Shown here: piece after piece, positions 22,046-63,179 of the stretch | How positions within the stretch are numbered: the first letter of the stretch is position 1 | How the letters are laid out: each line of letters starts with the position of its first letter | Source of the DNA: Blastocatellia bacterium | GTDB taxonomy: Bacteria; Acidobacteriota; Blastocatellia; UBA7656 | Assembly: GCA_963765495.1 (NCBI GenBank) | Contig: CAVXWP010000002.1 | Location: 541,476-605,475, forward strand | Direction of reading: 5' to 3' | Length of the DNA stretch: 64,000 bases | Program-made: the position numbers and the translations under genes | The notes under the pieces: generated by a model | Database searches by the model: none | What the model saw: the letters and a program-made list of their open reading frames with translations, nothing else | Told to the model about the DNA's origin: nothing

Positions 22046-23836
22046 AGGACAATTATCAAGCAGGTTTCTCATAAAATCAAACAAGGGTATGCCGAGGTCG
22101 ATGCGGAGCCTAACACCGAGATAACCGGCCCGCTGTGGTCGGAGGGATAATGAATCGCTGGCACGCGGGTCCGGTTGATTGAGCGGTTAGGCGGTCCCTT
22201 GCCTGTTTCATTTCTTGCGCTTGGCTGACCCTGATCCTCCTATTTTCACTCTCACTTTCTGAGACAGCTTTTCCTGTCATTGCCAAGGAAGCAGCTTGAT
22301 GTGCAAGCTTTGTCCTTCCCATTCAGGCTTCTCTACCCCTTGCCTCAACAGGTGGTTGTGCTGCGAAGGTATCTTTTCGAGGCAGCATTTTCATTGAGCC
22401 AGAGTGAATAATCCTTTGGAAGAAACATCCTATGAAGGAACAAGAGAAGAGAGAAGCGAGCAGGTGGCTGTCCTGGCGATGACTCACCTGAGCATGTTTT
22501 TCCATCACTGTTTGGCGAGTCGTCTCCCTCTCAATCGGTGATCTGACGCCTAACGTCCTGGTTGAGCGGCCCGCTGTGGCATCCCCTTCATCTGAATAGT
22601 TGGCATGCGGGTCCGGTCGAACCGGTTGTTAGGCGCGTTCTGATTTGCAAGTGCGTCACAGATGATTGCATTGGTTCGAGCCGCGCCTGCTTTCTTTGCC
22701 TTACAGCTGTATTTTGGCTCACCCTTTTCGAGAAGCGCGGCGGAGTGTGAGGCTAACAGCTTGGCTCATAGACAGGTCTACTTCGCTGCAATCTGACGAG
22801 CGATGTGAGTTTAAAAGCATTGCTTGTAGGCAGATATTCTTCGTCGCATCCTTGGCAATCAATGCCTCTCTTTCTCACCGACCAACTCCCGGCGCGCTTA
22901 ACACCGAGTTCAGCGGCGCGCCGTGGCCTCCGCTTCAACTGAGTAGCTGGAATGCGCGTCCGCTGGAATGAGCAGTTAGGCGGCTCCTTTCGGGATTCAT
23001 TCATTTCCTTGGGCTTTCCTGACAGGCTTCTTCCATTTCTTATCTCCTGTTTCATCTCAGTTTCTCCTCTTGCGCGCAATTCATACCTTCTCCGCTGGGG
23101 CAGGTTTTCTTGTCGGGGAAACTGCTTGATGTGCCAAGTTCCTCCTTTCCAAACAGTCTTCTCTGGCTCTTTGCTCAACAGGTAATTGGCTGCCGGAGTA
23201 TCTTTGCGAGATAGGTTTATCTTTGAGCAAGCCTGAAAAGAGAGCATCAGAAGAAAGGAGTTCAGATAAGGGAGAGTTGAGAGAAACAAACAGAGTTGAA
23301 TCGGGTAAAAAGGAGCGAGAGGCGAGCAAGTAGCAGTCCTCACTATGTCTCACTCGATCATGTTTTCATATCATTGCTTGGTGAGTCGTATCGGTTGTGA
23401 GATTGACGCCTAACGCCGGAGATAACCGGCGCGCTGTGGCCCCCGATGCCATCCAGAAGGTGGTATGCGCGTCCGGTTGATCGACCAGTTAGGCGCGTTC
23501 TGATTCGCAAGTATGTCACAGATAATTGCCTTCGTAATAGCCGCGCTGGCCCACTTTGCCTTTTAGCGAGGCTTTGACCTATCCTATTAAAGAAGCGCGG
23601 CGAGGTGTGAGGCTGACTCGACAGACGAAGAGAGGTGATCGCTGGTTGCAATCTGAGGGCCAGTGAGAGTCAAACAGCACAGCTTGAAGGCAAGTATTGT
23701 CGGCTGCGATCTAAACGACCAGTGTGATTCACTCTCATCAACCAACCTCCTACGCGCTTAACGCCCCGGTTGACCGGACCGCTGTGGCCTCCCCTTCAAG
23801 CGAGTGGTTGGCTTGCGGGTCCGGTCGAACCGGTTG

Positions 23837-24253
23837 TTAGACGCCGCTTTCAGCCATCAACGCCTTGAACCCTGCTTGCTCAAAATCTTGATCGAATGTC
23901 AGTGCTTCTGTTACTCCAGCATCCTTCATCGCTATAAATGAGATGCAGTCTATCAATCCCCAATCTTTGTCTTCGTACTTCTTGTATAGATCAAATGCCC
24001 GCTCGAACAGTTCTGTCGTGAGCCGTACTATTTGTACTTCCTCAGAGTCCAAGAAATCTTCAATGACATCGATGGCCTCTTGTTTATAATTGCGCGCTAA
24101 TCCGTTCCCGATCTCAAGCAGCACCGCGTCCGTAACGAGCAATGGATTGTCCTCATATTTAGCGGCTAATTCCCCAGCCTTTGCATGGTATTGATCGCGC
24201 GGGTTGATTAAAGCGACGACGAAGAGCGTGTCAACGAAGATTCGGTTCGGCAC
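23837..24253 (-). CDS. vapC: Cassette: VapC PIN toxin
   Basis: IFVDTLFVVALINPRDQYH...WGLIDCISFIAM...ALTFDQDFEQAGF. Confidence 0.92.
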   Translation of the reverse strand: MPNRIFVDTLFVVALINPRDQYHAKAGELAAKYEDNPLLVTDAVLLEIGNGLARNYKQEAIDVIEDFLDSEEVQIVRLTTELFERAFDLYKKYEDKDWGLIDCISFIAMKDAGVTEALTFDQDFEQAGFKALMAESGV

Positions 24254-24458
24254 GTTTTTCTCCGCTCATATAGAGGTCAAAATTTGTAGAGAAGTCTTCT
24301 GGAGCATCTATCTTGATATTTCTCAGCTTTGACATGAAGCTCTGTTTCTGGTCTTGTTGCTTAGATTGAGTGAAGTCCTTCACCAGTTTATACAGTTCGT
24401 CCAAGTCCTGTTCACTGATCCGATCAATCTCAACTTGTATTAGCTCTTTCGTTGTCAT
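24231..24458 (-). CDS. Cassette: putative antitoxin
   Basis: 75 aa overlapping the vapC start; C-terminal IDAPEDFSTNFDLY. Confidence 0.75.
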   Translation of the reverse strand: MTTKELIQVEIDRISEQDLDELYKLVKDFTQSKQQDQKQSFMSKLRNIKIDAPEDFSTNFDLYMSGEKRAEPNLR

Positions 24459-24599
24459 ACGTTGCTCCCTTCACCAACATTATTAATCATCCGGGCAATC
24501 GAGGCAACTGCACCTCAGGCGTCTAACGCAGGCATCAGCGGCCCGCTAGCAGCAAAGGGATAATGAGGAGGTGGTTTGCGGGTCCGCTGGAATGAGCAG

Positions 24600-25547
24600 T
24601 TAGGCTCTCGCACCCTCAGACTCATCGATTTCTTTATTTTGGTTTCCTTCCCAACAGAGTGGGAGATCAAGATCATCAATAAGCGAGGGAGCATCAGGAT
24701 CACCTGTTCCTATGAATATCTTACTTGGCTCCCATTCAAGCAAAACCCTCGCTATCATTCTTGTTGCTTGTGTTCTAACACTTGGCTTTTTCCTGATTAA
24801 GACATGCTCATCATAATTACTACAAGTATAGTGCAGATGCTTCCCGCATCTATGTAAATGACCTTGATATATAGTCTCCCCTTTCAGGGAAATTAAAACT
24901 GCTATTGACGGGAAGGTAGGATTAACATAGATCGAACATTGAGAGTCACTTTCCCAAGATTCCTCTGTGAGCTTCTTTGCCATATTTTCATCAATTGTAT
25001 TGCTGAGGCTCGATGAACAAGTTGGGCAATAGTCTATATCTAGCGGTTCGCTTAGTGTAATGAGCTTAATACCTTTGCCAAGCCATTCCAATTCAGACAA
25101 TGCTCCATCAATCCATTGTTCGGGTGGTCCGCTTGCCACAAGATGGTAAACTCGCTCAAATTCGATCTTTTGATTCTGCCACTGAAGGATTAGCCTCATT
25201 GAGTGAATCTGTGAATGAGTACCATAGAGATTCAAGACAGCCAATATTTTGGGGCTAGGCTTCGCTGCTTCCTCAACGAATGCCTCCCAGGATTTCTTAA
25301 ACTCAAGGATACGGTCAGCGCCCAATTCAATATGATTACTTGTGTAAGCTCCTGGCCTATGATGGGCATCGTGGTCCTTAACGCAAAGCACAGCCAAATT
25401 AGGATCAACCGTATTTGATGCATCACCATCAATATGATGAATGTTTAGCCCGATCCCTCGTTGCTTACAAACACAACATGCATTCGCATTTCGTTTTAGC
25501 AAATGTTCTCTTTGTTTTGTAGTTGGATCAACTCGTTTTCTAGACAT
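24600..25547 (-). CDS. Cassette: HNH endonuclease-domain protein
   Basis: CCVC...NIHHIDGDASNTVDPNLAVLCVKDHDAHH. Confidence 0.8.
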   Translation of the reverse strand: MSRKRVDPTTKQREHLLKRNANACCVCKQRGIGLNIHHIDGDASNTVDPNLAVLCVKDHDAHHRPGAYTSNHIELGADRILEFKKSWEAFVEEAAKPSPKILAVLNLYGTHSQIHSMRLILQWQNQKIEFERVYHLVASGPPEQWIDGALSELEWLGKGIKLITLSEPLDIDYCPTCSSSLSNTIDENMAKKLTEESWESDSQCSIYVNPTFPSIAVLISLKGETIYQGHLHRCGKHLHYTCSNYDEHVLIRKKPSVRTQATRMIARVLLEWEPSKIFIGTGDPDAPSLIDDLDLPLCWEGNQNKEIDESEGARA

Positions 25548-25925
25548 ACTTCTGAAAACTTGCGACTCCTTTGGAATTGAGCCCAACGGCCCAATTGATG
25601 TGCGAACGAGCAATTATTGTACGTAGAATAGGCGAGATAATCCATCGTACATGGTCACGTGGGGTTGAAAAAATAAATTTGCTTTGGATTATGCTTACCA
25701 GTGTTTGCGATGTTTCAGCGTGAGCCTAACGCCGAGTTCAGCGGCGCGCTGTGGGCTTCGATGCAAGCGAACAGTTGGCACGCGCGTCCGCTGGAATGAG
25801 CAGTTAGGCCGAATACATCAAATAGCCTGAGAGGCCCTTCTTCGCTAGGTTCAAGAAGTTCAACGAGGGTCACAGCATTACATCTAGCATAGACGACCGC
25901 ACTCCTAATCTTACGGACATTGCTT

Positions 25926-26783
25926 TTAAGCTTCGATGCCCGAGTGTTTTAATAATCCTCGATGAATGCGGTCATGCCGCTTATTCGATAATTCAATGTA
26001 TTTTTCCAACCCATTTAGGCCAATTATGTCGATCCGATAGGATGATCGAGTGTACGATCTGGACTTAAAATGAAACTTCATTGGAGCCATCTCGATTTCA
26101 GCTATATCTATTTCTCCTTGTTCACTCAAATCTGCTGCCAGAAGGATACCATCCAGAATAACAATTGGCTTTACAAAAACTAAGTATGGTGGATTGCTGA
26201 ATACATCTATTACCTTCTCTACCCCTTCCAATTTGGGCCAAGACTCTGCCTTAAGAGCATGCTCGGCAGCCTTACAAACGGATACACATGCCGAATACCA
26301 TTGCGAGGGGCTATTAGGATTCTTAAAGCTCTCGTGAATCCCATACCCATTCCATTTCAATTGCGAGATCAGTGATTCTGAAGTCATATAATCATAAAGA
26401 ATGCGCGGATCAAAAGGTAAATTGTCATAAAACGTCAAATTGTTCCATGCATCACCAGTTCGTAATGGCGTATCGGACAGATCCTCCCTGAAGATTACCT
26501 AAGGTTTCTCGGATTTCTTGACCTCTGCAACTATGTGATACCAACTTTGGATAAGCTTCTTATCATCAAGCTTGTGCATTAACATTCTGTGTGCTTGCAA
26601 ATCACATTCTCTCGTCTTCTGTTCATCTTTATCAAAGTAATTGAGGGTTCCTGAACAAGACCATTCTTTGGCAAGAAAGGTTCTTATTACTCTCATTTCA
26701 GAACCAAATCCAGATTTTTCCAAGTCTTTAATCACACTTTGTTTAAAGGCATTGTTCATAAAACCCATTCTACCAGTATCCAT
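25926..26783 (-). pseudogene. Cassette: hypothetical (PD-(D/E)XK-like) protein with in-frame TAG at 26499-26501
   Basis: ORFs 26499-26783 and 25926-26438 are in the same frame; LEKSGFGSE...RECDLQA...AEVKKSEKP*VIF, where the stop is probably a former TGG. Confidence 0.7.
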
Positions 26784-26886
26784 TTGAATCGTTTAGGCCT
26801 AACACCGAATTCAGCGGCGCGCTGTGGCTCACGATGCAATCGAGGGGGTGGCAAGCGCGTCCGCTGGAATGAGCAGTTAGGCTCAG

Positions 26887-27210
26887 TTAGGGGGCGAACA
26901 TCTCTGTTAATACTGTCAAAACATCTGATTCTATTTTCCTGTTAACCTTCCCTAATTTTCTTACGAGTCTTACTTTGTCAACAGTCCGAATCTGATCCAA
27001 TACGATTTGGCCTTTTTTGCCTTGGAATGTCAAAGCAACTCTCGTTGGGTAGCTTCTTCCTTTCGTTGTCATTGGAGCCACAATCACAGTGTTAATATGT
27101 CTATTCATTTCATCAGGGGAAATGATTAAACAAGGCCGTGTCTTCTTAATCTCACTGCCAATTGTAGGATCAAGATTGATGAGATAGACTTCAAATCTCC
27201 TGACTACCAT
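26887..27210 (-). CDS. mazF: Cassette: MazF/PemK toxin
   Basis: NLDPTIGSEIKKTRPCLIISPDEMN...VIVAPMT...LDQIRTVDKVRL. Confidence 0.93.
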   Translation of the reverse strand: MVVRRFEVYLINLDPTIGSEIKKTRPCLIISPDEMNRHINTVIVAPMTTKGRSYPTRVALTFQGKKGQIVLDQIRTVDKVRLVRKLGKVNRKIESDVLTVLTEMFAP

Positions 27211-27458
27211 TGCCACTCTTCTTCATCCCATTTAGTTGAGTTAGGAAAATAGTCATCAACAGATGAATCATCCTGATTTTCAGTCATAGTTTGAAAGGCT
27301 TGATCCCAAACATGCCTGGGATGCTGAGCAGATCGAATAATAATTTGATTGTCGAGTGCCTCAAGGTCAACCTCATCAGTAATGTTACTCTGTTCCAAGA
27401 GTAACTTTGGGATGCGAATACCTTGGGAATTACCAATTTTTATAATACGAGATTTCAT
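27204..27458 (-). CDS. mazE: Cassette: AbrB/MazE antitoxin
   Basis: IIKIGNSQGIRIPKLLLEQ...WDEEEWQW. Confidence 0.92.
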   Translation of the reverse strand: MKSRIIKIGNSQGIRIPKLLLEQSNITDEVDLEALDNQIIIRSAQHPRHVWDQAFQTMTENQDDSSVDDYFPNSTKWDEEEWQW

Positions 27459-27647
27459 AAGCACAATGTAATTACGAAGAGGCCAATAAGTCAAGTAAGA
27501 AAAGCAAGCGAGTTCCAGTAGACAAGTGCGAGCCTAACGCCGAGTTCAGCGGCGCGCTGTGGTTGGAGGGATAATGAAACATTGGTATGCGCGTCCGCTG
27601 GAATGAGCAGTTAGGCCGGTTTGCAAGGCTCATTTGTTGTATCGCTA

Positions 27648-28076
27648 TCAAAGTGCAAAAGGATTGGTTATCTTTAGCCGATTCTCTATTATCATTCCTC
27701 CACTCATATCTTCTGTGTACAGCATCTCTGCTGCTCCCAACAGCGCACTTGAAACGATGAGGCTGTCCCAAAAAGAAAACTGCAACTTCTCCCGTAGCTC
27801 TGAACCCTTCAACAATATGCTTCTGTCCATAACAACGACATCGTATTTATTATAGAAAGAGATGATGAGTGGTTGAAGACGTTGTTCATCGAATTGAGCT
27901 TTCTTGATGAGGTTGACACATATCTCATTAATGACTTGAGTGCTGACGATTATGTCGTTTTGTTGAATTATTGTTTTTGCAATAACTGATTTGTTCAGGT
28001 CTTGACCAGGAATAAAAGCATATAGCCAAATATTGGTATCAATAAAACATAAGGGTGTAGGACTAAGGTTGCTCAT
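27648..28076 (-). CDS. Cassette: PIN-domain toxin
   Basis: FIDTNIWLYA...STQVINEICVNL...SFWDSLIVSSAL...LYTEDM...ITNPF. Confidence 0.9.
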   Translation of the reverse strand: MSNLSPTPLCFIDTNIWLYAFIPGQDLNKSVIAKTIIQQNDIIVSTQVINEICVNLIKKAQFDEQRLQPLIISFYNKYDVVVMDRSILLKGSELREKLQFSFWDSLIVSSALLGAAEMLYTEDMSGGMIIENRLKITNPFAL

Positions 28077-28275
28077 AAATCTCTTCTCTCGCAAGAGGGC
28101 TGAATCCTTCAATGTTGAGGGGGTGAGCTAGAAGGTGTTCGATCATATCAAAATTTTCAGAGTTGTCTTCTGTAAGAAGAATGACCCGCACAACACCTTT
28201 GAACCTATCCCTGTGTTCTTCAGGAATAGTGATATTTCCGTCTCTTACTCTCGTTTGAAACTCAATTGCATTCAT
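28063..28275 (-). CDS. Cassette: putative antitoxin
   Basis: 70 aa MNAIEFQTRVRDGNITIPEE...AREEIYE overlapping the PIN gene. Confidence 0.75.
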   Translation of the reverse strand: MNAIEFQTRVRDGNITIPEEHRDRFKGVVRVILLTEDNSENFDMIEHLLAHPLNIEGFSPLAREEIYEQP

Positions 28276-28308
28276 AACTTAATTCCCTTCAATCTCTCTG
28301 CAATAAGA

Positions 28309-28409
28309 CAATGAAGCTCCTCGCAGCAAGCTGCGAGGTATCGCGCAAGAGGGGAGGAAATGGAGCCGCAGCAAGCTGCGGGGAATTGCCTGACCCTCCT
28401 CAGATTAAA
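28309..28409. repeat. Twin-hairpin element resembling IS200/IS605 ends or a REP doublet
   Basis: cctcgcagcaagctgcgagg and ccgcagcaagctgcgg, the same palindrome twice about 45 bp apart. Confidence 0.55.
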
Positions 28410-28659
28410 GCGTCGAGCGTACTAGGTCAAGTGCGAGGGCCTAACGACGAGTTCAGCGGCGCGCCGGTACCAATGGGATATTGAAACGTTGGCAAGCGCG
28501 TCCGCTGGAATGAGCAGTTAGGCTTGCCCCCGATAAGCAGCTAGTGCCATTTCAACAAAGCAATCCATTTTCTACTCAGTCCGATTTCAAAAGCGATATT
28601 GGGAAGGCAAAACAGCTTTCTTGCCATACTACGATGGGGGGCAAAACGAGATGGTAGCG

Positions 28660-28965
28660 TTAGGAGTAGTCGGGTACATAGCAAAAGTATTTCGCTCTCC
28701 CAGTACCCTGACATCTGGAACAAGCTAAAACGGCTCGTTTATCCATTCCGCTGGGATACTGCCCTATTACCGGCCCAGCGACTGTCCGACTCCCATTGCA
28801 GGCATCGCATTGTCCCTCATACTCAAATCTCTTCACCTGCCCAGTGCCGCCACACTGTTGACATATCCGTGTGGCAGAGCGGTATCCACTCTTCTCGAAT
28901 CCAGCATCGTAGGATTCTGTGTATGTTTCCTTGCCCGAACCGCTACATTTATCACAGATCGTCAT
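28660..28965 (-). CDS. Cassette: DnaJ-type CxxCxGxG zinc-finger protein
   Basis: CDKCSGSG, CQQCGGTG, CDACNGS, CSRCQGTG. Confidence 0.75.
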   Translation of the reverse strand: MTICDKCSGSGKETYTESYDAGFEKSGYRSATRICQQCGGTGQVKRFEYEGQCDACNGSRTVAGPVIGQYPSGMDKRAVLACSRCQGTGRAKYFCYVPDYS

Positions 28966-30019
28966 AAACGAAAGCACCTCCGTTTCGAGAAATGTGTCAC
29001 TTCGGAACTAACTCCAAAGCAGTTGCCCTAAAGAACAAAGATGTTATGTAAAATGGGAGAGATTTTCAATTTGAAACAACAGCCAATCCTCATAAAAATA
29101 GAGCTGATGCTGCATTATCCATACAAAGAATTTCAGAGTAACAATGAGAGCCTAACACCGAGATAACCGGCCCGCTGTGGTCGGAGGGATAATGAATCGC
29201 TGGCACGCGGGTCCGGTTGATTGAGCGGTTAGGCGGTCCCTTGCCTGTTTCATTTCTTGCGCTTGGCTGACCCTGATCCTCCTATTTTCACTCTCACTTT
29301 CTGAGACAGCTTTTCCTGTCATTGCCAAGGAAGCAGCTTGATGTGCAAGCTTTGTCCTTCCCATTCAGGCTTCTCTACCCCTTGCCTCAACAGGTGGTTG
29401 TGCTGCGAAGGTATCTTTTCGAGGCAGCATTTTCATTGAGCCAGAGTGAATAATCCTTTGGAAGAAACATCCTATGAAGGAACAAGAGAAGAGAGAAGCG
29501 AGCAAGAGGCTCTCCTCGCTATGACTCGCCTGAACTGGTTTTCGTAGCGTTGCTTGTTGAGTCGTTTCCCTTTCATCGGTGATCTAACGCCTAACGCCGA
29601 GATAACCGGCGCGCTGTGGTCGGAGGGATAATGAGGCGTTGGAATGCGGGTCCGGTTGATGGACCAGTTAGGCGCATTCCACCTTGAAGGTTCGGTAAAG
29701 ATACCACTGTCGAAATGCCAAGCCGCGCCAACAGATAGCTTCGACTCAACCGGAATTTATCGGGTAGCGCGGCGCAGTGATTGTGTCAGTACACTTTGTA
29801 GACATGTAGTCTGATTGCTTGGTTGACGATCAGTGTAGCTCATTATCACGGATCGCTTCCCTGTGCGCTTAACGCAGGCATCAGCGGCCCGCTGTGGTGA
29901 AAGGGAAAATGAGGAGTTGGCAAGCGGGTCCGCTGAATGCCTCAGTTAGGCCCGACTCTGAGTCTGCATCGCTATGCGTGTTCACAGGTATGTGTTCATA
30001 ACCACTTCTTACTGTAACG

Positions 30020-30529
30020 TCAAACTCCTGTGACATCTGATAGCACTGTTGGTCGCCCGTCACCTTTCATTTCCACTATGCTTAAACTTCCATCCGTTTC
30101 AAGTACTACTGCTTCGACCTCCTCTTCTCCTTTTATGCCTTGACTGCGGATCGCTTGAAGTATCTCCCCTTCGTTCACTCGCTCCGCTTTCATCGCACTC
30201 CTAAGAAATACTCCTCGATGAAATAGTAACTTCGGCTCTGACTTGACCAACTTGCTTATTGTCTTTGAACGAATTGAAAGCCAGGTGATTATGAATTGAA
30301 GAAATATCAACAAGGAAAGAGCCAGCAATCCTTCTGCAAGTGGAGTATTCTTGGAGAGAATGATTGTGGCTAAAATTGACCCCAAGGCAACTGTCACTAC
30401 GAAGTCAAAGGCATTCATTTTAGAAAGAGTTCGTTTGCCAGAAATGCGGAGTAATAGGATAAGAGTAGGATAGGTGCAGATGGTGGCAACAGCAATTCGT
30501 GCCAACCCAGACCAGCTAGTGAAGAACAT
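30020..30529 (-). CDS. Cassette: DUF421 (YetF-like) membrane protein
   Basis: LRISGKRTLSKMNAFDFVVTVALGS...AVVLETDGSLS. Confidence 0.9.
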   Translation of the reverse strand: MFFTSWSGLARIAVATICTYPTLILLLRISGKRTLSKMNAFDFVVTVALGSILATIILSKNTPLAEGLLALSLLIFLQFIITWLSIRSKTISKLVKSEPKLLFHRGVFLRSAMKAERVNEGEILQAIRSQGIKGEEEVEAVVLETDGSLSIVEMKGDGRPTVLSDVTGV

Positions 30530-32012
30530 ATCAACTCCCCGAGTAAATTGAACAAGCGTCTTGAGAGATTATACATGACAGGAAACATTTTGGGCTTAAC
30601 GCCGGAGATAACCGGCCCGCTGTGGCCCCCGATGCCATTGAGAAGGTGGCAAGCGCGTCCGGTTCATGGACCTGTTAGGCGCATTCTACCTTGCAGGTTC
30701 ATTACAGTTGGGCTTGTCTCACATCAAGCCGCGCTGATAGTTTGCTTCCCGTTGACCAATAAATCACAAATAGCGCGGCGCGGTGATTGTGTCAATACTG
30801 TTGGCAGACAGGTGATCTGATTGCTCCGTTTACGATCAGTGTCGCTCATTTTCACGGATGGCTTTCCTGTGCGCCTAACACCGAGATAACCGGCCCGCTG
30901 TGGGCTCAGGGATAACGAGAAGTTGGTTTGCGGGTCCGGTTGATCGACTTGTTAGGCGGCTCCCCTTGCTGATTTATCTCTTCGCCTTCGCTCGTTTTCA
31001 TCTTCCAATCCTCTTCCTCCCTTCTCTTTGCAGTTTCTTCCTGACTGCTTAAAAGCTGTTTGCCTGGTCGAAAGCTTCCTTCCCAAGCAGGTCTGCTTTG
31101 GCCAAGGCTTATCAGGCAAACTGGCTTGAAGAGGCTCTTTGGCAAATAACCCAGAGACAGAGCATAGCTGAAAGCACTGCATTGTAGAAGTGTGAGCCTG
31201 ATGAAGGCGAGAAGATTGATCGTTCTCGGCAGTGACTCCATAACAGGTCTTTTTGGCATCGCTTGATGAGCCGTTTCCTCTCTATCGATATTCTGACGCC
31301 TAACGCCGGAGATAACCGGCGCGCTGTGGCCTGCAATGCAAGCGAGACATTGGTATGCGCGTCCGGTTGATGGACCAGTTAGGCGCATTCCACCTTGTAG
31401 GTTCAATAGAGTTACTCGTTCCCCTCTGCCAAGGCGCGCCCAGTGTTGATTTGCTTTTCAATCAGCAAATATAGGAGGGCGCGGCGGACTGATTGTGTCA
31501 GCACTGTTGGCAGGCAATTAGTCTGATTGCTTCATAGACGAGTAGTATGCCTCTTTTTCACGGATGGCTTTCCTGTGCGCTTAACGCCGGAGATAACCGG
31601 CGCGCTGTGGCCCCCGATGCCATCCAGAAGGTGGTATGCGCGTCCGGTTGATCGACCAGTTAGGCGCGTTCTGATTCGCAAGTATGTCACAGATAATTGC
31701 CTTCGTAATAGCCGCGCTGGCCCACTTTGCCTTTTAGCGAGGCTTTGACCTATCCTATTAAAGAAGCGCGGCGAGGTGTGAGGCTGACTCGACAGACGAA
31801 GAGAGGTGATCGCTGGTTGCAATCTGAGGGCCAGTGAGAGTCAAACAGCACAGCTTGAAGGCAAGTATTGTCGGCTGCGATCTAAACGACCAGTGTGATT
31901 CACTCTCATCAACCAACCTCCTACGCGCTTAACGACGAGTTCAGCGGCGCGCCGGTAGCTGATGGAACGCGAGCAGTTGGAATGCGCGTCCGCTGGAATG
32001 AGCAGTTAGGCT

Positions 32013-33496: not shown

Positions 33497-33499
33497 CAG

Positions 33500-33739
33500 T
33501 TAGGCTGCCTCCAAAACCTTCTTGGCTACGTCTTTTCCGGCCGTTGGTGGAGGCAAAGGTCTTCCATCTCTTTTCAATAAATCAATCCATTCATCCACAA
33601 TCTGACATAGTTCTGCAAATACCTGCGCTTCATCGTTTCCATGACAACAGGGACCTATGATTCCTGGGCATTGCCCCACAAAACAATTGTCTTCATCTGA
33701 CCATTCAACAATCTTGATATAGCGGGCGCTTTCTTTCAT
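33500..33739 (-). CDS. hicB: Cassette: HicB-like antitoxin
   Basis: IVEWSDEDNCFVGQCPG...HG...DEWI...DGRPLPPP. Confidence 0.8.
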   Translation of the reverse strand: MKESARYIKIVEWSDEDNCFVGQCPGIIGPCCHGNDEAQVFAELCQIVDEWIDLLKRDGRPLPPPTAGKDVAKKVLEAA

Positions 33740-37326: not shown

Positions 37327-37389
37327 ATTTCCCCACGCGAATTTCAATGAAGTAGTTCAATTGCGAAATAGATGCACATAAGAGTCTCT

Positions 37390-52731: not shown

Positions 52732-52893
52732 AATGCACCTCCGATTCCATAATACGGCCAGTCACAGGCAAGCGTCTAACGCCGAGTTCAGCGGCGCGCT
52801 GTGGTTGAAGGGAAAATGAGAAGGTGGAATGCGCGTCCGCTGGAATGAGCAGTTAGGCGAGTCCCATTTTAGAACCCAGTCATTTCAATTCTA

Positions 52894-53538
52894 TTACTTC
52901 TTGTCTGCAACATATAAATGTACACTCCCAAACCCTCCTATCTCTCGCTCAATGTACTCGAAGTTAAACTTGTTGAATATTTCGCTCATATCCCGTATTA
53001 CGTCTCCTGATTTTGCCCAACACTTCGCTATATTCATCCCTATTAAGTTCCTATCCTTCGGATACGTAAAGTCGATCAAAACTATTCTTCCACCCCTCTT
53101 TAGAACTCTATACATCTCCTCCATTGCTTTCGTGCCGTCAGGGTATCCTGAAAACGCCATTGTGTTTATGATTGTATCAAACGTCTCATTCATAAAAGGC
53201 AAGCTTTCTGCATTTCCTACCTGTAGATGTGCGAGTATACCTTTGGATTGTATGTTCTTCTTTGCAATTGTCGCCATCCTTTCATTATAGTCGATTCCGT
53301 GGGTCTCAAATTTATCTGCATACTTCGTCATCAAATATCCTGTCCCAAACGATACCTCTAATACTCTCGGGCCTTTTAGGTATGGAATGACTTTCTTTAG
53401 CCAGTTGCTCCAGATTGGCAATATTTTCACAAGAATATCGTATGTTTTTGCGAAAGCCGTATAAAACTCATCGAACTTTTCTGTAAACTCTTTTTTATTT
53501 TCAGGTTCTTTCGAATATAAAGTATTCATTGTTGCCAT
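52894..53538 (-). CDS. Cassette: class I SAM-dependent methyltransferase
   Basis: VLEVSFGTG, GNAESLPF..ETFD, EMYRVLKRGGRIVLID. Confidence 0.9.
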   Translation of the reverse strand: MATMNTLYSKEPENKKEFTEKFDEFYTAFAKTYDILVKILPIWSNWLKKVIPYLKGPRVLEVSFGTGYLMTKYADKFETHGIDYNERMATIAKKNIQSKGILAHLQVGNAESLPFMNETFDTIINTMAFSGYPDGTKAMEEMYRVLKRGGRIVLIDFTYPKDRNLIGMNIAKCWAKSGDVIRDMSEIFNKFNFEYIEREIGGFGSVHLYVADKK

Positions 53539-54427
53539 TTTATAAAATGACTATGAAGCGTACAACTTCATTTCTCACTAACGGCTCTGCCGCGCCTAAC
53601 GCCGGAGATAACCGGCGCGCTGTGGCCTGCAATGCAAGCGAGACATTGGTATGCGCGTCCGGTTGATGGACCAGTTAGGCGCATTCCACCTTGTAGGTTC
53701 AATAGAGTTACTCGTTCCCCTCTGCCAAGGCGCGCCCAGTGTTGATTTGCTTTTCAATCAGCAAATATAGGAGGGCGCGGCGGACTGATTGTGTCAGCAC
53801 TGTTGGCAGGCAATTAGTCTGATTGCTTCATGGACGAGTAGTATGCCTCATTTTAACGGATGGCTTTCCTGTGCGCTTAACACCGAGATAACCGGCCCGC
53901 TATGGTCAAAGGGATAATGAGGAGTTGGCATGCGGGTCCGGTTGATTGAGCAGTTAGGCGGCCCCTTTCGCCGCTTCATTCTTTTTGAGCTTTGCTGACC
54001 ATTATTCTCCAATTCTCAGTCTCACTTTCTGAGGCAGCTTTTCCTGCCATTGTCGGGGAAGCAGGTTGATGTGCAAGGCTAGTCCTTCCCAATCAGGTTT
54101 GACCTGCCGCCTACCTCAACAGGCAATTGCCCTGCGAAAGTATCCTTGAGAGGCAGCATCGTCATTGAGCCAGAATGAATAATCGTTTGGAAGAAACATC
54201 ATATGAATGAGCAAGAAAGAGAGAAGCGAGCAGGTGGCTCTGCTCGCGATGACTCCCCTGAGCATGTTTCGTAGCGTTGCTTGATGAGTCGTCTCCCTCT
54301 CATCGGTGTTTTGACGCCTAACGCCCCGGTTGAGCGGCGCGCCGGTAACTGATGGGACGCGAAATGTTGGAATGCGCGTCCGGTCGAACCGGCTGTTAGA
54401 CGCGGTTTTGCCAAAGTTCACCTTCAT

Positions 54428-54832
54428 CTATGTTGATCTGGTACTTCGGAGTTTATAGCTCTCTTTCTCTTTGATAATTGTAAAGAGCTTCTTTCTTCTT
54501 ATCCAAGCCCAATTCCTTTTGGCCCTATTCCTCCACCACGTATCTAGGCTCGTCTTTTCTGGTTTTACACAGAACGTAACCTTCGCGACAAACTTGTCGT
54601 CTTTCCATTCACCAATCTCTATTTGGTGGATTATATATTCTTGAATTCTCATTTCCGCAATTGCTTGGGGATGAGTGAAATAATGGAACCAAAAGGTCAG
54701 GAGGATACCCACAATGGGTGGCTGATAATCGTCAGCAATGAAGCGAGCAGGCAGAATAGGCGTATTGCCTGGAAACTCTTCCATGCATATTTCCCCCTCA
54801 TCGAGACAGCCTTTTAGAAATTTAGTAATCAA
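54428..54832 (-). CDS. Cassette: hypothetical protein
   Basis: ORF fills the cassette. Confidence 0.6.
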   Translation of the reverse strand: MITKFLKGCLDEGEICMEEFPGNTPILPARFIADDYQPPIVGILLTFWFHYFTHPQAIAEMRIQEYIIHQIEIGEWKDDKFVAKVTFCVKPEKTSLDTWWRNRAKRNWAWIRRKKLFTIIKEKESYKLRSTRST

Positions 54833-57347
54833 GCATCAACTCCCGTTGTCGATGGCTCCTCTGCGTCTAACGACGGAGATAACCGGCGCGCTGTGGGCCT
54901 CGATGCAAATGAGTAGATGGCATGCGCGTCCGGTTGATGGACCAGTTAGGCGCATTCCACCTTGAAGGTTCGGTAAAGATGCCACTGCCCATCTGGCAAG
55001 GCGCGCCAGGAAATCGCATCCTCACAATCAACATTCATCGAAAGGCGCGGCGGACTGATTGTGTCAGCATTGCTTGTATGCAGGCACTCTTCGTTGCACC
55101 CTATGTGATCAGTGTGGCTCATCCTAACGAACAACTTCCCAGCGCGCTTAACGCCGGAGATAACCGGCCCGCTGTGGGCTCAGGGATAATGAAGGGTTGG
55201 AATGCGGGTCCGGTTGATGGACCAGTTAGGCGCATTCCACCTTGTAGGTTCAATAGAGTTACTCGTTCCCCTCTGCCAAGGCGCGCCCAGTGTTGATTTG
55301 CTTTTCAATCAGCAAATATAGGAGGGCGCGGCGGACTGATTGTGTCAGCACTGTTGGCAGGCAATTAGTCTGATTGCTTCATAGACGAGTAGTATGCCTC
55401 TTTTTCACGGATGGCTTTCCTGTGCGCTTAACGCCGGGGATCAGCGGCCCGCGGTGGGTAGAGGGATAATGAATCGGTGGTAGGCGGGTCCGCTGAATCC
55501 CCCTGTTAGGCGCGTCCCATCTTGTCGGTTCAATTCTGCATATTCTTCGAGCAAGCCGCGCACATATATCGTTTCCAGATATCGAGCATACATCGGGTTG
55601 CGCGGCGGAGTGATTCTAACAGCATTGTTTGTAGACAGGTATTCTTCTCTGCATCTTTGGCGATCAATGTGGTAGGTTTTCTCGGACCGCTTCCTGCGCG
55701 CTTAACGCAGGCATCAGCGGCCCGCTGGTAGCAGCGGGATAAAAGCACGGTGGCACGCGGGTCCGCTGAATGCCACAGTTAGGCGCGTTCAATCTTGTCG
55801 GTTCGATTCTGCATATATTCTTCGAGCAAGCCGCGCTAGGAGTTCGTTGCTTTTCACCGAGCAGCTTTCGAGTTGCGCGGCGGACTCCTTGTAAAAGGAT
55901 CGCTGGTAGACATGTATTCTTTGCTGCGTGATTGACGATCAGTGTGCCTCATTGTCACGGATCACTTCCTGCGCGCTTAACGACGGAGATAACCGGCCCG
56001 CTGTGGGCTCAGGGATAATGAAGGGTTGGAATGCGGGTCCGGTTGATGGACCAGTTAGGCGCATTCCACCTTGAAGGTTCGGTAAAGATACCACTGTCGA
56101 AATGCCAAGCCGCGCCAACAGATAGCTTCGACTCAACCGGAATTTATCGGGTAGCGCGGCGCAGTGATTGTGTCAGTACACTTTGTAGACATGTAGTCTG
56201 ATTGCTTGGTTGACGATCAGTGTAGCTCATTATCACGGATCGCTTCCCTGTGCGCTTAACGACGAGATAACCGGCCCGCCGTGGGCAAAGGGATAACGAG
56301 AGGTTGGCATGCGGGTCCGGTTGATCGACCTGTTAGGCCCGCCTTTGTCTTTGGCCGCGCTCGGCGCTTATTTCGAGCAAATCAGTCTGCCTCGATTGGC
56401 GCGGCCCCAACCTTAACTCCTTGCTTGGTGTTTTGACCTTTTCGTCATCATGGTCTTGTTGTCCGAAATACCTTTGCATCCAATTCGTTGCTGTTGGTCA
56501 GGTACTTTCCCGCGAGCCTAACGCCGAGATAACCGGCGCGCTGTGGTCGGAGGGATAATGAGGCGTTGGAATGCGGGTCCGGTTGATGGACCAGTTAGGC
56601 GCATTCCACCTTGAAGGTTCGGTAAAGATACCACTGTCGAAATGCCAAGCCGCGCCAACAGATAGCTTCGACTCAACCGGGATTTATCGGGTAGCGCGGC
56701 GCAGTGATTGTGTCAGTACACTTTGTAGACATGTAGTCTGATTGCTTGGTTGACGATCAGTGTAGCTCATTATCACGGATCGCTTCCCTGTGCGCTTAAC
56801 GTCGGGGATCAGCGGCCCGCTGTGGGCAAAGGGATAATGAATAGCTGGCATGCGGGTCCGCTGTATCCCCCTGTTAGGCGTCACTCCTCGCTGTTTCATC
56901 TCTTCGCCTTTGCTCGTTTTCATCCTCCGATCCTCATCTTGTCTTCTCCCAACAGCTTCTTACTCATTGCTTGAAAGCTGATTCAATTGCCGATAGCTTC
57001 TTTCCCAACCAGGTCTGCCTTGGCCAATGATCATCAGGCAATCTCGATAGGACTGGGTCTGTGCCAGTAAGCCCAGAGAAGAGCATAGCTGAAGGCACTC
57101 GAATGGAGAAGTGTGAGTCTGATGAAGGCGAGAAGATTGATCGTCCCCGGCAGTGATTTCAAAGCAGGTCTTTTGGAATTGATAGCTGAGTCGTTTCCTC
57201 TCCACCGATCTTCTGACGCCTAACGCCCCGGTTGAACGGCCCGCTGTGGCCTCCCCTTCAAGCGAGTGGTTGGATTGCGGGTCCGGTCGAACCGGTTGTT
57301 AGACGGCGTCTTTTCCTGCGAGCATTCTTTGGTCTTTTGTTTTTCTC

Positions 57348-57713
57348 TCATTGCTCAAACCATTTTGCCTGCTCTTTCGGCGACCTCAAAATACCGAAGA
57401 GCGATTCTATAGACTGGTCAGTGAGTATTGTAAACCAAACTGACTTGAGCTCTATTGAGTGTACTTCTATTGTTTGTCCATCTGCTCCTTTCAACGATGA
57501 TAGAAGCTCATCAAACCCCTCAGTCCTCGATACGTCCCTCCCTTTGTTTATTGCTGCGCGCACAGAGCAGACGCGAGCAACGTCAGCGATGAGAAGTGGA
57601 CTTGTCTTGAAGTATCGGTATTCACCTTGTCTCTTAATCCTGTCAAGACAATCCAAGACAAGTGGGTCGCTTTGTTTAGATTCGAGAAGTTGTCTCAATC
57701 GGTCATCCATCAC
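57348..57713 (-). CDS. Cassette: hypothetical protein
   Basis: ORF fills the cassette. Confidence 0.65.
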   Translation of the reverse strand: MMDDRLRQLLESKQSDPLVLDCLDRIKRQGEYRYFKTSPLLIADVARVCSVRAAINKGRDVSRTEGFDELLSSLKGADGQTIEVHSIELKSVWFTILTDQSIESLFGILRSPKEQAKWFEQ

Positions 57714-58365
57714 TTGAAAGTCACCATGACGTCAGCTGTCTAACGCCGAGTTCAGCGGCGCGCCGGTAGCTGGTGGAACGCGAGTAGTTGGAAAGCGCGT
57801 CCGCTGGAATGAGCAGTTAGGCGGCTTCCTTCGCCGATTCATCCTTCTTGAGCTTTCCTGATCATAACCCTCCTATTCTTATCTCTCGTTTCTGCACAGT
57901 TTCTCTTCTTCCTCACAGGTCATTTCCTCTCTCGTGCGACAGGTGTTGCTCTCTTTCGTCGGGGAAGCTTTTTGATCTGCCTACTTCCTCTTTTCCAAAC
58001 TCGCCTCTCTGATGCTTGTCTCAACAGGCAATCGGCTGAACAGGCTTCTTCGCCAGACAGGTTTATATGAGCAATGCTGAAAGACTGCTTTGGGAGAAAG
58101 AAGTGTCAGATGAAGGAGCAGGGATGAGAGACACAGCAGAGTAGTATGGGGATAAAGAGGCAAGAGAATCGAGCAAGTAGGGGTCCTGGCGATGACTTGC
58201 CTGGACAGGTTTCAACAGCAAGGCAAACTGAGTCGTCTCCCTTTCGTCGGTGATCTGACGCCTAACGACGAGTTCAGCGGCGCGCCGGTAGCTGATGGAA
58301 CGCGAGCAGTTGGCATGCGCGTCCGCTGGAATGAGCAGTTAGGCTTGGCCCCTTGTCGATGCAAG

Positions 58366-59103
58366 TCATTTGCCCCGCGTCAAACCATAAAGTGAGAGAA
58401 GTCCAGCCGCAATTTCAGCACGAGTTTTATCTCTCAATCCTGTATCATCAGACTCCATACTTTCGAGTATCTGAACAGACATTCCAACAGCATTGATTCT
58501 TTCAAGGATGTTGACATAATCTCTAGCTTGTTCCATCGTGGACTTATAAATTAGCAAAAAAGTTGCTGCAATAAACTCTACAATTATTCCAGCTAAAGTG
58601 ACGACAATTGATGGTTGAAAATTATCAGGAGATTTATAGACTTGAATAGTTCCATAGCCAATAACGATGAAACCAGCAGTAATTACCAGTAGGCATCGAA
58701 AGAAAATCCAACGGATTTGAGCCAGATTCCGATTTAAGTAGATTTCGAGTTTGATTCTTGCAAGCTCCCAAGCTGCCTGTGGCTCATTTGGGTGTTCTCT
58801 AACACGTTCTTCTACTCTCTTTATCACTTCCTGGTGCTCGCTTGCAATTAGGACACGCTGATAGCCTGCAATTCCAATGATGAGCATTGCTCCAATAACA
58901 CCGAGGATTCCGGCCACTATATTCAAGAGTGGTTTTTGATTCGGAAGATTCTCTGCCACTATTGCACAAACTATGGCGAGGCCAATAGAAGAAGCGGCCA
59001 GGGTAAAAAGGAGGCGCAGTCTACGTCCGCCATGCACAATTGCGCCAAACAAGCCTTCTGCGACCCAAGACGAAATCTCAAGAATCATAGGTGTGGACCT
59101 CAT
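58366..59103 (-). CDS. Cassette: four-TM membrane protein, C-terminal half resembling TRADD-N-associated 2TM domains
   Basis: YLNRNLAQIRWIF...GIIVEFIAATFLLIYKSTMEQARDY; family call from memory. Confidence 0.65.
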   Translation of the reverse strand: MRSTPMILEISSWVAEGLFGAIVHGGRRLRLLFTLAASSIGLAIVCAIVAENLPNQKPLLNIVAGILGVIGAMLIIGIAGYQRVLIASEHQEVIKRVEERVREHPNEPQAAWELARIKLEIYLNRNLAQIRWIFFRCLLVITAGFIVIGYGTIQVYKSPDNFQPSIVVTLAGIIVEFIAATFLLIYKSTMEQARDYVNILERINAVGMSVQILESMESDDTGLRDKTRAEIAAGLLSLYGLTRGK

Positions 59104-59141
59104 TAACGCACAATTACGAGAAGATTAAGAGAAGAGTGCAG

Positions 59142-59170
59142 ATTCTATACGGAATCAAGCAGTTATTCAA
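59142..59170 (-). promoter_or_regulatory. Sigma70-like promoter in shared cassette leader
   Basis: TTGAAT-N17-TAGAAT. Confidence 0.65.
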
Positions 59171-62167
59171 TTTGAATCTATCCCGAATTTGAGAAAAATG
59201 AAATGTTTGTTGGTTTGTCCAAACCAAGAAATATCGGATTACCGAGCGAGCCTAACGACGAATTCAGCGGCGCGCTGGCGGCAAAGGGATAGTGAGAAGG
59301 TGGAATGCGCGTCCGCTGGAATGAGCAGTTAGGCGGCTTCCTTCGCCCCTCCATCCTCCTTCCTCTTGGCCGATCATTACCTCCCATTTCTCTTCTCCTC
59401 TTTCGCCTCTGTTTCTCCTCCTCCCTACTGTTATCCTCTCTTGCGTAATAGGGTTTCTTGCTTGTTGTCGCGGAAGGTTCCTGATCTCCCAGCTTGCCTT
59501 TCCCACACTCTTTTCTCTGCTGGTTGGCTCACCAAACCATTCAACTGCGAAGCTATCTTTGCCAGACAGGTCTATCTTTGAGCAAAGTTGAATAGTTGCT
59601 ATTGGAAAAGGAAATATCCAATAAAGGAGCAGAAATGATCGAATAAGCAGAGGTGCATCTGGTAAAGAGCAATGAGAAGCGAGCAAGTGGATGTCCTGGC
59701 GATGTCTTACCTAATATTGTTTTCGCCTCATTGCTTGGTAAGTCGTTTCGCTTCTGAGAGATTGACGCCTAACGCCGGGGATCAGCGGCCCGCTGTGGCC
59801 GAAGGGATAACGAGAAGCTGGTATGCGGGTCCGTTGAATGCCCATGTTAGGCGCGCCTTTGTCGTTGGCCGCGCTCGGCTTTCTGGGCAATTCAATCAAG
59901 GCATATCGGGAGGCGCGGCCCCAATCTTGACTCGCTGCTTTGTGACTGCGTCGTTTAGTTACTATGACATTGTTCACTCTTTTTTCCGCCTCTGTGTCGT
60001 TGCTGTTGGTCAGGAAATTTCCCCGCGAGCCTAACGCGGAGATAACCGGCGCGCTGTGGGCTCAGGGATAATGAAGGGTTGGAATGCGGGTCCGGTTGAT
60101 GGACCAGTTAGGCGCATTCCACCTTGAAGGTTCGGTAAAGATGCCTCTGTCGAAATGCCAAGCCGCGCCAGCAGATAGCTTCGACTCAACCAGGATTTAT
60201 CGGGTAGCGCGGCGCAGTGATTGTGTCAGTACACTTTGTAGACATGTAGTCTGATTGCTTGGTTGACGACCAGTATGCCTCATTGTCACGGATGGCTTTC
60301 CTGTGCGCTTAACGCCGGAGATAACCGGCGCGCTGTGGCCCCCGATGCCATCCAGAAGGTGGTATGCGCGTCCGGTTGATCGACCAGTTAGGCGCGTTCT
60401 GATTCGCAAGTATGTCACAGATAATTGCCTTCGTAATAGCCGCGCTGGCCCACTTTGCCTTTTAGCGAGGCTTTGACCTATCCTATTAAAGAAGCGCGGC
60501 GAGGTGTGAGGCTGACTCGACAGACGAAGAGAGGTGATCGCTGGTTGCAATCTGAGGGCCAGTGAGAGTCAAACAGCACAGCTTGAAGGCAAGTATTGTC
60601 GGCTGCGATCTAAACGACCAGTGTGATTCACTCTCATCAACCAACCTCCTACGCGCTTAACGCCGAGTTCAGCGGCGCGCTGTGGGCGAAGGGATAATGA
60701 ACAGTTGGCAAGCGCGTCCGCTGGAATGAGCAGTTAGGCGAGTGCTCTCCGTAATTCATCCTTCTTGCTTCTGCCATTTCCATCTTTGCGACTCATTGCC
60801 TCTGGTCGAAGTATTCTGGCGGGTAGAAGCTGGGCTTGCATTGAGAGCAGAGTGTTGTAGACGAGGCAATCGGGGGTTGGGTGATTGGATGCTTTGGTGC
60901 GTGGGTAGCAGATTGACAGGGGAGCAAGTGCATTGTCCTGGCGATGTCTCGCCTGCTCTTGATATTGCGGCTTTACCTGATGAGTCGTTTCAATTCAACG
61001 GATTCACTGACGCCTAACGTCCCGGTTGACCGGCCCGCTGTGGCCTCCACTTCATGCGAATAGTTGGATTGCGGGTCCGGTCGAACCGATGGTTAGGCGG
61101 CTCCCCTCGCTGTTTTACCTCTTCGCCTTCTCTCATTTTCATCTCTCTTTTCTATCCTCCTCTCCCATCTCCTTCTTTCTCCTTGCTTGCTGAGTGTCGA
61201 TTTGCAGAAACCATCCTTCCCTGACAGGTCTGCTTTGGCCATTTCTGCGCAGGCAATTTCGCTTGAAATGGCTCTGTGGAAAACAGCCCTGAGACTGAGA
61301 ATATCTGAAAGCAGAGATTTGATGAAGAATGATTCTGATGAGGAATTGCAGCGAGAAGTAGCATTGATAGGTGAACGGATCCATTCTCCTCGCGGTGTCT
61401 TTGCTGTCAGGTCTTTAAGCGATTGCTTGCCGAGTCGTTTCCATTTCACCGTTGTTCTGACGCCTAACGCCGGAGATAACCGGCGCGCTGTGGCCCCCGA
61501 TGCCATCCAGAAGGTGGTATGCGCGTCCGGTTGATCGACCAGTTAGGCGCGTTCTGATTCGCAAGTATGTCACAGATAATTGCCTTCGTAATAGCCGCGC
61601 TGGCCCACTTTGCCTTTTAGCGAGGCTTTGACCTATCCTATTAAAGAAGCGCGGCGGAGTGTGAGGCTGACTCGACAGACGAAGAAAGGTGATCGCTGGT
61701 TGCAATCCGAGGGCCAGTGAGAGTCAAACAGCACAATTTGTAGGCAGGTAATATTGGCTGCGTTCTTGACGGCCAATGTGATTGATTTCCATCGACCAAC
61801 TCCCAGCGCACTTAACGCCGGGGATCAGCGGCCCGCTGTGGCCGAAGGGATAACGAGAAGCTGGTATGCGGGTCCGTTGAATGCCCATGTTAGGCGCGCC
61901 TTTGTCGTTGGCCGCGCTCGGCTTTCTGGGCAATTCAATCAAGGCATATCGGGAGGCGCGGCCCCAATCTTGACTCGCTGCTTTGTGACTGCGTCGTTTA
62001 GTTACTATGACATTGTTCACTCTTTTTTCCGCCTCTGTGTCGTTGCTGTTGGTCAGGAAATTTCCCCGCGAGCCTAACGACGAGTTCAGCGGCGCGCCGG
62101 TAGCTGGTGGAACGCGAGCGGTTGGCACGCGCGTCCGCTGGAATGAGCAGTTAGGCTGAGTCCAGTT

Positions 62168-62410
62168 CTAAGTGCTTCCAAGTTCTCTTATTCTTTGTTT
62201 TTCTTCTTCTGCTTTTCGTTTGAAGTAAAGCGATAGCCATGAAGGGGCTTTATCAAGGTATAATGCAAACAATGTGACAACAGGCGTTGCGACAGATAGC
62301 ATCAAAAAACACGCAATAAATAAATCACGAGTCCGTAATCCGTATATTGATAAAAGAATTACACCCATGATCAAGAGAGATGCATTAAAGACGAAGCTAA
62401 TAATTTTCAT
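62168..62410 (-). CDS. Cassette: small two-TM membrane protein
   Basis: AAGGAG RBS; two hydrophobic segments and a charged tail. Confidence 0.7.
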   Translation of the reverse strand: MKIISFVFNASLLIMGVILLSIYGLRTRDLFIACFLMLSVATPVVTLFALYLDKAPSWLSLYFKRKAEEEKQRIRELGST

Positions 62411-63179
62411 AAAAGAAGTCTCCTTGAATGAGGTTAATGGAAAACGCAATAAGAATTCAAACGAAGAATGAGAATAGGAAGACCTTTAGGAAGATGTGAG
62501 ATTGAGTTAGGCAGACAAATTTGCCTGAGTAATCAATGGCGAGGGCTTTTGAGGTATTGCAAGCACAAAGGAAAAGAAAGGACTATCAGATTCAATAATC
62601 CAAGTCTTTCCGGGTGACCGAGTGAGCCTAACGACGAGTTCAGCGGCGCGCAGGTAGCTGCGGGATAATGAGAGGGTGGCATGCGCGTCCGCTGGAATGA
62701 GCAGTTAGGCGGCCTCTTAATTGTTTCATTTCCTTGAGCGTTGCTGACCTCCTTCTTCCAATACTCCTCTCCTGTTTCGGCGCAGTTCTCCTCTCTCTCT
62801 GTTGCTACCTTCTCCTGTGATAGGTCTTCCTGTTGTTGTCGGGAAAGTTTTTTGATGTGCTAAGTTCATCATTGCCAATCAGGTTTGTACTGCCACATTC
62901 CTCAACAAGCAATTGGGTGCGAATGTATCTTTGAGAGGCAGGATAATCTTTGAGAAGTGCTGAAATGTCAGCATCGGGAGAAAGCAGTATTGGGTAAAGA
63001 GGAAATAGAAGCGGGCAAGTAGCTGTCCTCACGATGACACGCATGAATCTGTTTTCGCATCATCGCTTTATGAACCGTCCCCCTTTCGTCGGTGATCTGA
63101 CGCCTAACGCCGAGTTCAGCGGCGCGCCGGTGGTAAAGGAAATCAGATTTTGGAAATGCGCGTCCGTTGGAATGAGCAG

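Follow-up and report, generated by a model that had tools for sequence, protein, structure and literature searches.

An integron cassette array at the end of a bacterial contig raises the question of what exactly is being repeated within it. The window considered here, 64,000 nucleotides from a Blastocatellia bacterium (assembly GCA_963765495.1), forms the terminal 64 kb of contig C2 in a genome of 7.3 Mb and 17 contigs; the DNA was traced to a single sequencing run, labelled soil metagenome, and to no RNA run. A first-pass annotation of the window had noted a set of similar non-coding units, Family B, and took them for a candidate large structured RNA or multi-site DNA element. I find that each copy of Family B is a whole integron cassette with neither a conserved reading frame nor a coding substitution pattern, and that neither strand of the family shows a conserved secondary structure. 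With moderate confidence, I lean towards a reading in which Family B consists of gene-less integron cassettes that were multiplied as a unit by the integron integrase and are mainly self-propagating passengers.

The array that holds Family B lies at 18961..64000 (minus strand) and its cassette genes are mostly on that strand, as is the majority of its long open reading frames (ORFs). The conserved attC core, together with its flanking RYYYAAC and GTTRRRY words, was used as a search pattern and located 82 attC sites of 75-87 bp, which carry the core words GCCTAAC...GTTAGGC and delimit 81 cassette bodies, 54 of them of 470 bp or less. G+C content, which is 0.52-0.57 to the left of 18 kb, falls to 0.41-0.54 inside the array. 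The array runs off the contig end, and the window contains no integrase gene. In the whole assembly there are 222 attC sites and 200 delimited bodies (114 of at most 470 bp), together with three integrase genes above the TIGR02249 cut-off (C6:263576-264514, C17:4162-5100 and C3:315777-316718). Each of these genes adjoins an array in divergent orientation, and those arrays contain Family B members.

Family B was collected by iterated nhmmer started from one copy, the body of cassette 7 at 43626-44003. This search returned 50 copies genome-wide (48 full, 2 partial), and a sequence-only covariance model of the 120 most conserved positions gave 50 as well; there are 39 distinct full sequences among them. 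All 50 copies sit inside arrays in a single orientation relative to attC. Each match fills one cassette body, with its own attC of 85-87 bp on the low-coordinate side. The window contains 17 members, the number reported in the first-pass annotation: 16 full bodies of 338-437 bp and one internally shortened copy in a 272-bp body. All 17 lie between two attC sites of the GCCTAAC...GTTAGGC type, whose words pair in folds, and the outer limits originally given for the family, 22193 and 63101, coincide exactly with the first and last cassette-body boundaries. This context, in which every unit is an entire integron cassette equipped with an attC of its own, explains the repetition.

The members are interspersed among coding cassettes and their neighbours are not fixed. 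All are on the minus strand. Cassette 1 spans 22108..22547 (attC 22108-22192, body 22193-22547), and cassette 2, a long form with both extra segments, 22896..23407 (attC 22896-22981, body 22982-23407). They are followed by cassette 3 at 29150..29588 (attC 29150-29234, body 29235-29588), by cassette 4, which belongs to a divergent short subfamily, at 30873..31297 (attC 30873-30957, body 30958-31297), and by cassette 5 at 36361..36837 (attC 36361-36445, body 36446-36837). Cassette 6, at 42741..43261 (attC 42741-42825, body 42826-43261), has an identical body on two other contigs, and cassette 7, at 43541..44003 (attC 43541-43625, body 43626-44003), is the seed used for searches and folds. Further along lie cassettes 8 at 45614..46063 (attC 45614-45700, body 45701-46063), 9 at 50031..50480 (attC 50031-50117, body 50118-50480), 10 at 51676..52197 (attC 51676-51760, body 51761-52197), 11 at 53875..54315 (attC 53875-53959, body 53960-54315), 12 at 56794..57217 (attC 56794-56879, body 56880-57217), 13 at 57738..58259 (attC 57738-57822, body 57823-58259) and 14 at 59250..59766 (attC 59250-59334, body 59335-59766). 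The short member, at 60655..61011 (attC 60655-60739, body 60740-61011), matches the family profile at 60905-60998 only, in the end region; by eye, its first bases resemble the Family B start. It is directly followed by cassette 16 at 61012..61461 (attC 61012-61098, body 61099-61461), and the set closes with cassette 17 at 62626..63101 (attC 62626-62710, body 62711-63101).

Eight pairs of identical bodies define the mobile unit. In these pairs, the low-coordinate attC is 0.97-1.00 identical in six cases and 0.77 identical in two, while the attC on the other side is only 0.32-0.90 identical. Since the low-side site is kept and the other side differs, the unit is the body plus its left attC, and the sense strand is the minus strand. 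This assignment agrees with the strand bias of the ORFs and with the geometry of integrase and array on other contigs. In attC sites, the bottom strand, which is the one recombined, is distinguished by an additional G within the 3' half of the inner repeat; the position of this G in the Family B sites presumably designates the plus strand as the bottom strand. Bodies and their own attC sites diverge together: among 41 distinct cassettes (820 pairs), their identities correlate with r = 0.61. Bodies that are identical, each accompanied by its own attC, are found beside different neighbours, which suggests that the cassettes would have moved as units under the action of the integron integrase. 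The divergence of the bodies is near neutral, with a tree length of about 5 substitutions per site and a gamma shape parameter alpha of 2.6; under the gamma model the relative rate was nowhere below 0.35, and no discrete slow blocks were callable.

The internal organization described in the first-pass annotation, namely ordered motifs separated by indel-rich linkers and a plus strand that is C/T-rich in its left half and A/G-rich in its right half, is borne out. The motifs are found well above chance expectation: GTCCTGGCGATGACT (up to 3 mismatches) has 9 matches versus 1.8 expected, GAGAAGCGAGCAAG (up to 2 mismatches) 13 versus 0.75, CTCAACAGGCAATT (up to 2 mismatches) 8 versus 0.59 and TGTCGGGGAAGC, more weakly enriched, 14 versus 5.45, and the order of the blocks is constant in the alignments. 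Across the 16 full copies of the window, the purine fraction of the plus strand ranges from 0.07 to 0.34 in the body's second eighth and from 0.65 to 0.82 in its sixth. This asymmetry is far weaker or absent in other small cassettes. ACGACTCAC, present in some copies, is reminiscent of the core of phage T7-type promoters; this likeness and two GANTC words were judged coincidental.

Clustering of the 200 bodies in the assembly put Family B into two clusters, one of 35 members, of which 34 are Family B, and one of 9, and brought out two other gene-less families of 36 (188-421 bp) and 33 members. The three families together represent more than half of the roughly 200 cassettes, Family B about a quarter. 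The bodies of the other two families measure about 176-421 bp and show no purine/pyrimidine asymmetry; examples in the window are found at 22635-22895, 23495-23755, 29674-29866, 30681-30872, 51499-51675 and 59853-60028.

A search for conserved folding gave a consistent result on both strands. RNAalifold assigned no consensus pair to the 16 window copies on either strand, and when given the 39 distinct copies it paired essentially nothing but the attC core words; these words are also the only ones whose mean pair probability over copies is above 0.3. The first-pass annotation had pointed to an inverted pair, GATGACT-N-GAGTCGT, near one end of the cassettes. The exact form, with a spacer of 28-34 nucleotides, does occur in 5 of the 16 full copies, but the helix that it implies is not supported. 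When looser pairing is allowed, 87.8% of the cells in 16 distinct rows pair, as compared with 85.7% after shuffling, a level reached by 31 of 500 shuffles. Only two cells are changed on both sides, the middle pair is broken in 8 of the 16 distinct rows, and the covariation score is 0.213 versus 0.165 in shuffles.

Against shuffles that preserve local composition, the folding energies of eight copies gave z values of -0.4 to -4.2, alike on both strands; against global shuffles, the seed copy (minimum free energy -131 kcal/mol on the plus strand) gave z -3.05 on the plus strand and -1.53 on the minus strand. The share of pairs spanning more than 150 nucleotides is 0.31-0.45 in four copies versus 0.18-0.25 in global shuffles, and it falls within the shuffle range in two of the four. 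In the single-stranded DNA fold of an attC-body-attC segment, the body closes on itself next to the folded attC. Comparison of the left arm with the reverse complement of the right arm in ten copies gave z values of -1.1 to 1.7 against within-half shuffles, and a long-hairpin reading was discarded, the complementarity of the arms being no higher than composition gives. Local hairpins of the seed copy, such as CAGCATTG...CAATGCTG, were also set aside, as they are absent from the other copies on reading the alignments. The Rfam search proposed by the first-pass annotation yielded no match to Family B: at gathering thresholds the window gave group II intron matches only, outside the array, and at E values up to 1 a 3.5-kb stretch with three copies gave nothing.

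By contrast with the structural claim, the non-coding character attributed to the family at first pass is supported. As had been stated, the same block is read in different frames in different copies; moreover, no reading frame is common to the subfamilies, and start codons appear and vanish among copies. In the two longest ORF frames, compared between copies about 79% identical, the substitutions per codon position are flat (23/21/27 and 19/20/23), and no strong 3-base periodicity appears in windowed substitution counts or column entropies. None of six long ORFs has a Pfam match above threshold (five have no match at all, the sixth a sub-threshold match to DUF3561, E 0.069), and one ORF of 203 amino acids compared with a collection of 5.8 billion proteins has no homologue among 197 candidates. 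Long ORFs are nevertheless present: the longest in each of the 16 full window copies encode 49-130 amino acids, more than 70 in 11 of them, so that Family B exceeds the limits used to call a cassette gene-less by Boucher et al. (no ORF above 150 bp) and by Blanco et al. (none above 210 bp). Such ORFs are expected from composition, because tracts of one base class contain no stop codon in any frame. In other respects Family B has the attributes of gene-less cassettes, with no protein match, collinear similarity over the full length and no synonymous-site pattern of change. A short ORF opened by a Shine-Dalgarno-like word and an ATG ahead of attC, as at 42867-42900 on the sense (minus) strand, was considered as a conserved gene and rejected: it is found in about half of the copies, and its peptides are of 8 or 15 amino acids or read through into attC.

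Among the genomes searched, Family B has so far been found in this one alone. BLAST against 40 relatives returned a single 31-nucleotide match, in G026. The sequence-only model detected no copy in 57 other genomes of the order, many of whose assemblies break at the integron; of the 57, 37 carry an integron integrase that scores above the cut-off. A pattern scan of genome contigs gave 80 loci, none of which matches the family profile, the pattern being too loose, and two metagenome pattern scans, which detect only exact motif matches from part of the family, gave nothing.

The layout itself was also used as a query, in the form of a 70-nucleotide pyrimidine window followed by a purine window. 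In this genome, the scan gave 33 matches in the arrays and 18 in the remaining 7 Mb or so. In the integrase-flanking DNA of 23 relatives (25 loci, 237 kb), the only matches were in two genomes of one related genus, G044 (7 and 2, that is 9 matches in 40 kb of arrays) and G015 (1). The look-alike cassettes of this genus, g16, are about 390 bp long (L117 4596-4985, 7409-7799 and 17841-18230; L135 approximately 16070-18394; L115 11101-11508). Their sense-strand purine profile by eighths is 0.5, 0.33, 0.22, 0.49, 0.6, 0.51, 0.69 and 0.78; that of Family B, reverse-complemented, is about 0.53, 0.33, 0.18, 0.48, 0.64, 0.61, 0.8 and 0.72. No homology between the two families was detected by nhmmer, global alignment gave z values of -1.2 to 1.1 against local shuffles, and the model run with filters off had a best E of 0.053, at an unrelated place. 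A few 9-11-mers common to both families can be picked out by eye. The look-alike cassettes have GGAGGA and an ATG at their sense 5' end, with a frame that is kept for about 28 codons in three of four variants, and the reading frame of their later blocks differs between copies.

What, then, could maintain such a family? That it is a large structured non-coding RNA, the principal proposal of the first-pass annotation, I consider most improbable. The plus-strand energy of the seed copy relative to global shuffles speaks for it, and so does an invariant U-G in the GATGACT/GAGTCGT pair, which is workable on the plus strand only; however, there is no consensus pair and no shared pair probability on either strand, the named helix lacks real covariation, both strands fold about equally against local shuffles, and Rfam is empty. 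It is also very doubtful that a short protein is, or formerly was, encoded on the sense strand, one version of this reading being a type-I-toxin-like peptide with fold-back pairing. The pyrimidine-rich part would give Leu/Ser/Phe/Pro-rich residues and the purine-rich part charged ones, a start region M-M/I-R-K-H-x-Q-V...LLAS recurs on the sense strand of many copies, two subfamilies have open frames of 103-118 amino acids, and the g16 family has a strong GGAGGA-N-ATG start followed by its partly kept frame. Set against this, start codons are absent or displaced in entire subfamilies, the same blocks fall in different frames with flat codon-position counts, and the long ORFs, which have neither a Pfam family nor a homologue, are expected by composition alone. 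A type I toxin-antitoxin module in the strict sense was rejected, since start codon and frame are not conserved among subfamilies and there is no coding substitution pattern.

Two further proposals place the function in the DNA. In one, the pyrimidine arm of the single-stranded cassette would pair loosely with the purine arm, join the flanking attC hairpins and raise excision and re-insertion; I regard this as improbable, and give as little credence to the claim that the layout is the functional part of a class of self-amplifying 'parasite' cassettes that would have arisen at least twice, in Family B and in the unrelated sister-genus family. The high copy number, the identical copies in different contexts, the excess of long-range pairs over global shuffles, the body that folds back beside the folded attC and the multi-copy state of the unrelated family with the same layout all fit such a mechanism. 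But the arms are complementary no more than composition yields, the long-range share is unexceptional in half of the copies folded, and the families of 36 and 33 members without asymmetry indicate that amplification is possible without the layout. The other proposal, rather unlikely though less so, is that the cassettes are kept for starting or stopping transcription in a long array, either by activating neighbours or by blocking antisense transcripts. Tansirichaiya et al. (PMC6557892) reportedly described promoter-bearing gene-less cassettes in 2019. According to Blanco et al. 2024 (PMC11014356), most of 29 gene-less Vibrio cassettes have sense-strand promoter activity that drives transcription downstream, and these promoters are not predictable in silico. 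The scattering of Family B among coding cassettes with variable neighbours is in keeping with a regulatory role, as are the mildly heterogeneous site rates and a small hairpin with a T-rich run on the plus (antisense) strand at the attC/body junction in 2 of 3 copies scanned. Against it, no sigma-70-like site was found in 2 of the 3 bodies scanned and the third, 45701-46063, has one weak minus-strand site (46012-45985, 9 of 12 matches); the scan of the region gave 2 sites versus 2.7 expected, no conserved -35/-10 pair was found on reading the alignments, and the G+C content of about 50% is unlike the AT-rich sequence linked to spurious promoters.

The reading that I prefer, that of a gene-less passenger cassette, would dispense with a specific product. 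The integrase would multiply and shuffle Family B as a unit through attC x attC excision and re-insertion, and the family would persist chiefly by propagating itself within the integron. Most of the pyrimidine-then-purine layout and the common blocks would have been inherited from a founding cassette. An effect on the host, if any, would most likely be exerted through transcription of neighbouring cassettes, as promoter or insulator, and not through a folded RNA or a protein. Any function of Family B is probably slight or regulatory.

Several observations weigh against the passenger reading. The layout is kept by all copies even at 55-65% identity, and some words are near-fixed across deep subfamilies, GAGTCGT being exact in 31 of 39 distinct copies. 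Site-rate variation is mild but significant, the log-likelihood rising from -5901.2 to -5842.3 when gamma is included. A Shine-Dalgarno-like word with an ATG or GTG is found about 42 nucleotides before attC on the sense strand of 24 of 48 copies. Two genomes of a related genus have, in their arrays, a multi-copy family that is unrelated in sequence and has the same layout, and this recurrence hints that composition itself may be selected. Finally, movement by the integrase, as read from the cassette contexts, presupposes a correct assembly, and mis-joins at repeated attC sites could mimic it; the contigs of the one DNA run have joints at attC boundaries, indistinguishable from assembly-graph branching at repeated attC and paralogous cassettes.

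Elements of the kind to which Family B belongs have been described before, in Vibrio; Family B differs from them in its host phylum, its layout and its apparent confinement to one genome. According to Boucher et al. 2006 (PMC1382264), 6-49% of the cassettes in Vibrio arrays are non-coding, the highest value being that of V. vulnificus, two strains of which contain 45 and 34 copies of one family. These cassettes are described there as conserved along their whole length, confined to vibrios and restricted to close relatives, and as either selfish or regulatory. Like them, Family B is made of whole, highly repeated cassettes with attC and no conserved gene, is similar along its whole length and is lineage-restricted, and the same two readings apply to it. 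Unlike them, it resides in another phylum, bears no sequence relation to the Vibrio families, and has the pyrimidine-then-purine layout with composition-driven ORFs above the 150-bp limit of that study; and whereas the Vibrio families have homologues more than 80% identical in sister species, Family B has none in the other genomes searched.

The gene-less cassettes of Blanco et al. 2024 have bodies of similar size (335-515 bp) and are likewise interspersed in long sedentary arrays. They are mostly single, some being decayed genes, and their promoter activity was measured, whereas Family B has 50 copies and is known from its sequence, with one weak consensus site in the three copies scanned. 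The review PMC8876359 mentions Treponema cassettes that lack an ORF but carry promoters, and also sRNA-Xcc1, a small RNA encoded by an integron cassette of Xanthomonas (Chen et al. 2011). sRNA-Xcc1 is the RNA product of an ORF-less cassette; Family B differs from it in having no conserved fold and no Rfam match. In a literature search whose coverage left most subscription journals outside, no account of such cassette families in Acidobacteria was found.

Other mobile elements accompany the array. Nested group II introns occupy 13158-17875, about 1.1 kb from the last attC, with Rfam intron matches at 13158-13270, 16703-16803 and 17799-17875. One reverse transcriptase ORF is interrupted: 13496-14410 encodes RVT_N and the beginning of RVT_1, and 16764-17795 the remainder of RVT_1 with maturase and HNH. 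Between the two pieces lies a complete second intron ORF, 15024-16700 (RVT_1, maturase and HNH). An rve-type transposase is found at 12342-13124, also outside the array. Within it, two very long 'cassettes' (2102 and 2162 bp) in the segment 32012-36360 contain transposase genes, IS4-type at 32063-33487 (plus strand) and DDE type at 35108-36250 (minus strand), and thus insertion sequences sit inside the array. Coding cassettes with recognizable products are found at 46938-48207, 52859-53593 and 58345-59249; the products are a Na+/H+ antiporter (PF06965, 410 amino acids), a class I methyltransferase (214 amino acids) and a two-transmembrane 'CyanoTRADDas_TM' protein (245 amino acids).

Long sedentary integrons are usually seen as banks of genes, and in this genome more than half of some 200 cassettes are gene-less. 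With Family B, a gene-less pattern so far reported chiefly from Vibrio is extended to a soil bacterium. This is relevant to the question of whether gene-less cassettes are useful to the array, as promoters or insulators, or instead simply exploit the integrase, and the occurrence of the same layout in an unrelated family of a related genus provides a testable handle on that question.

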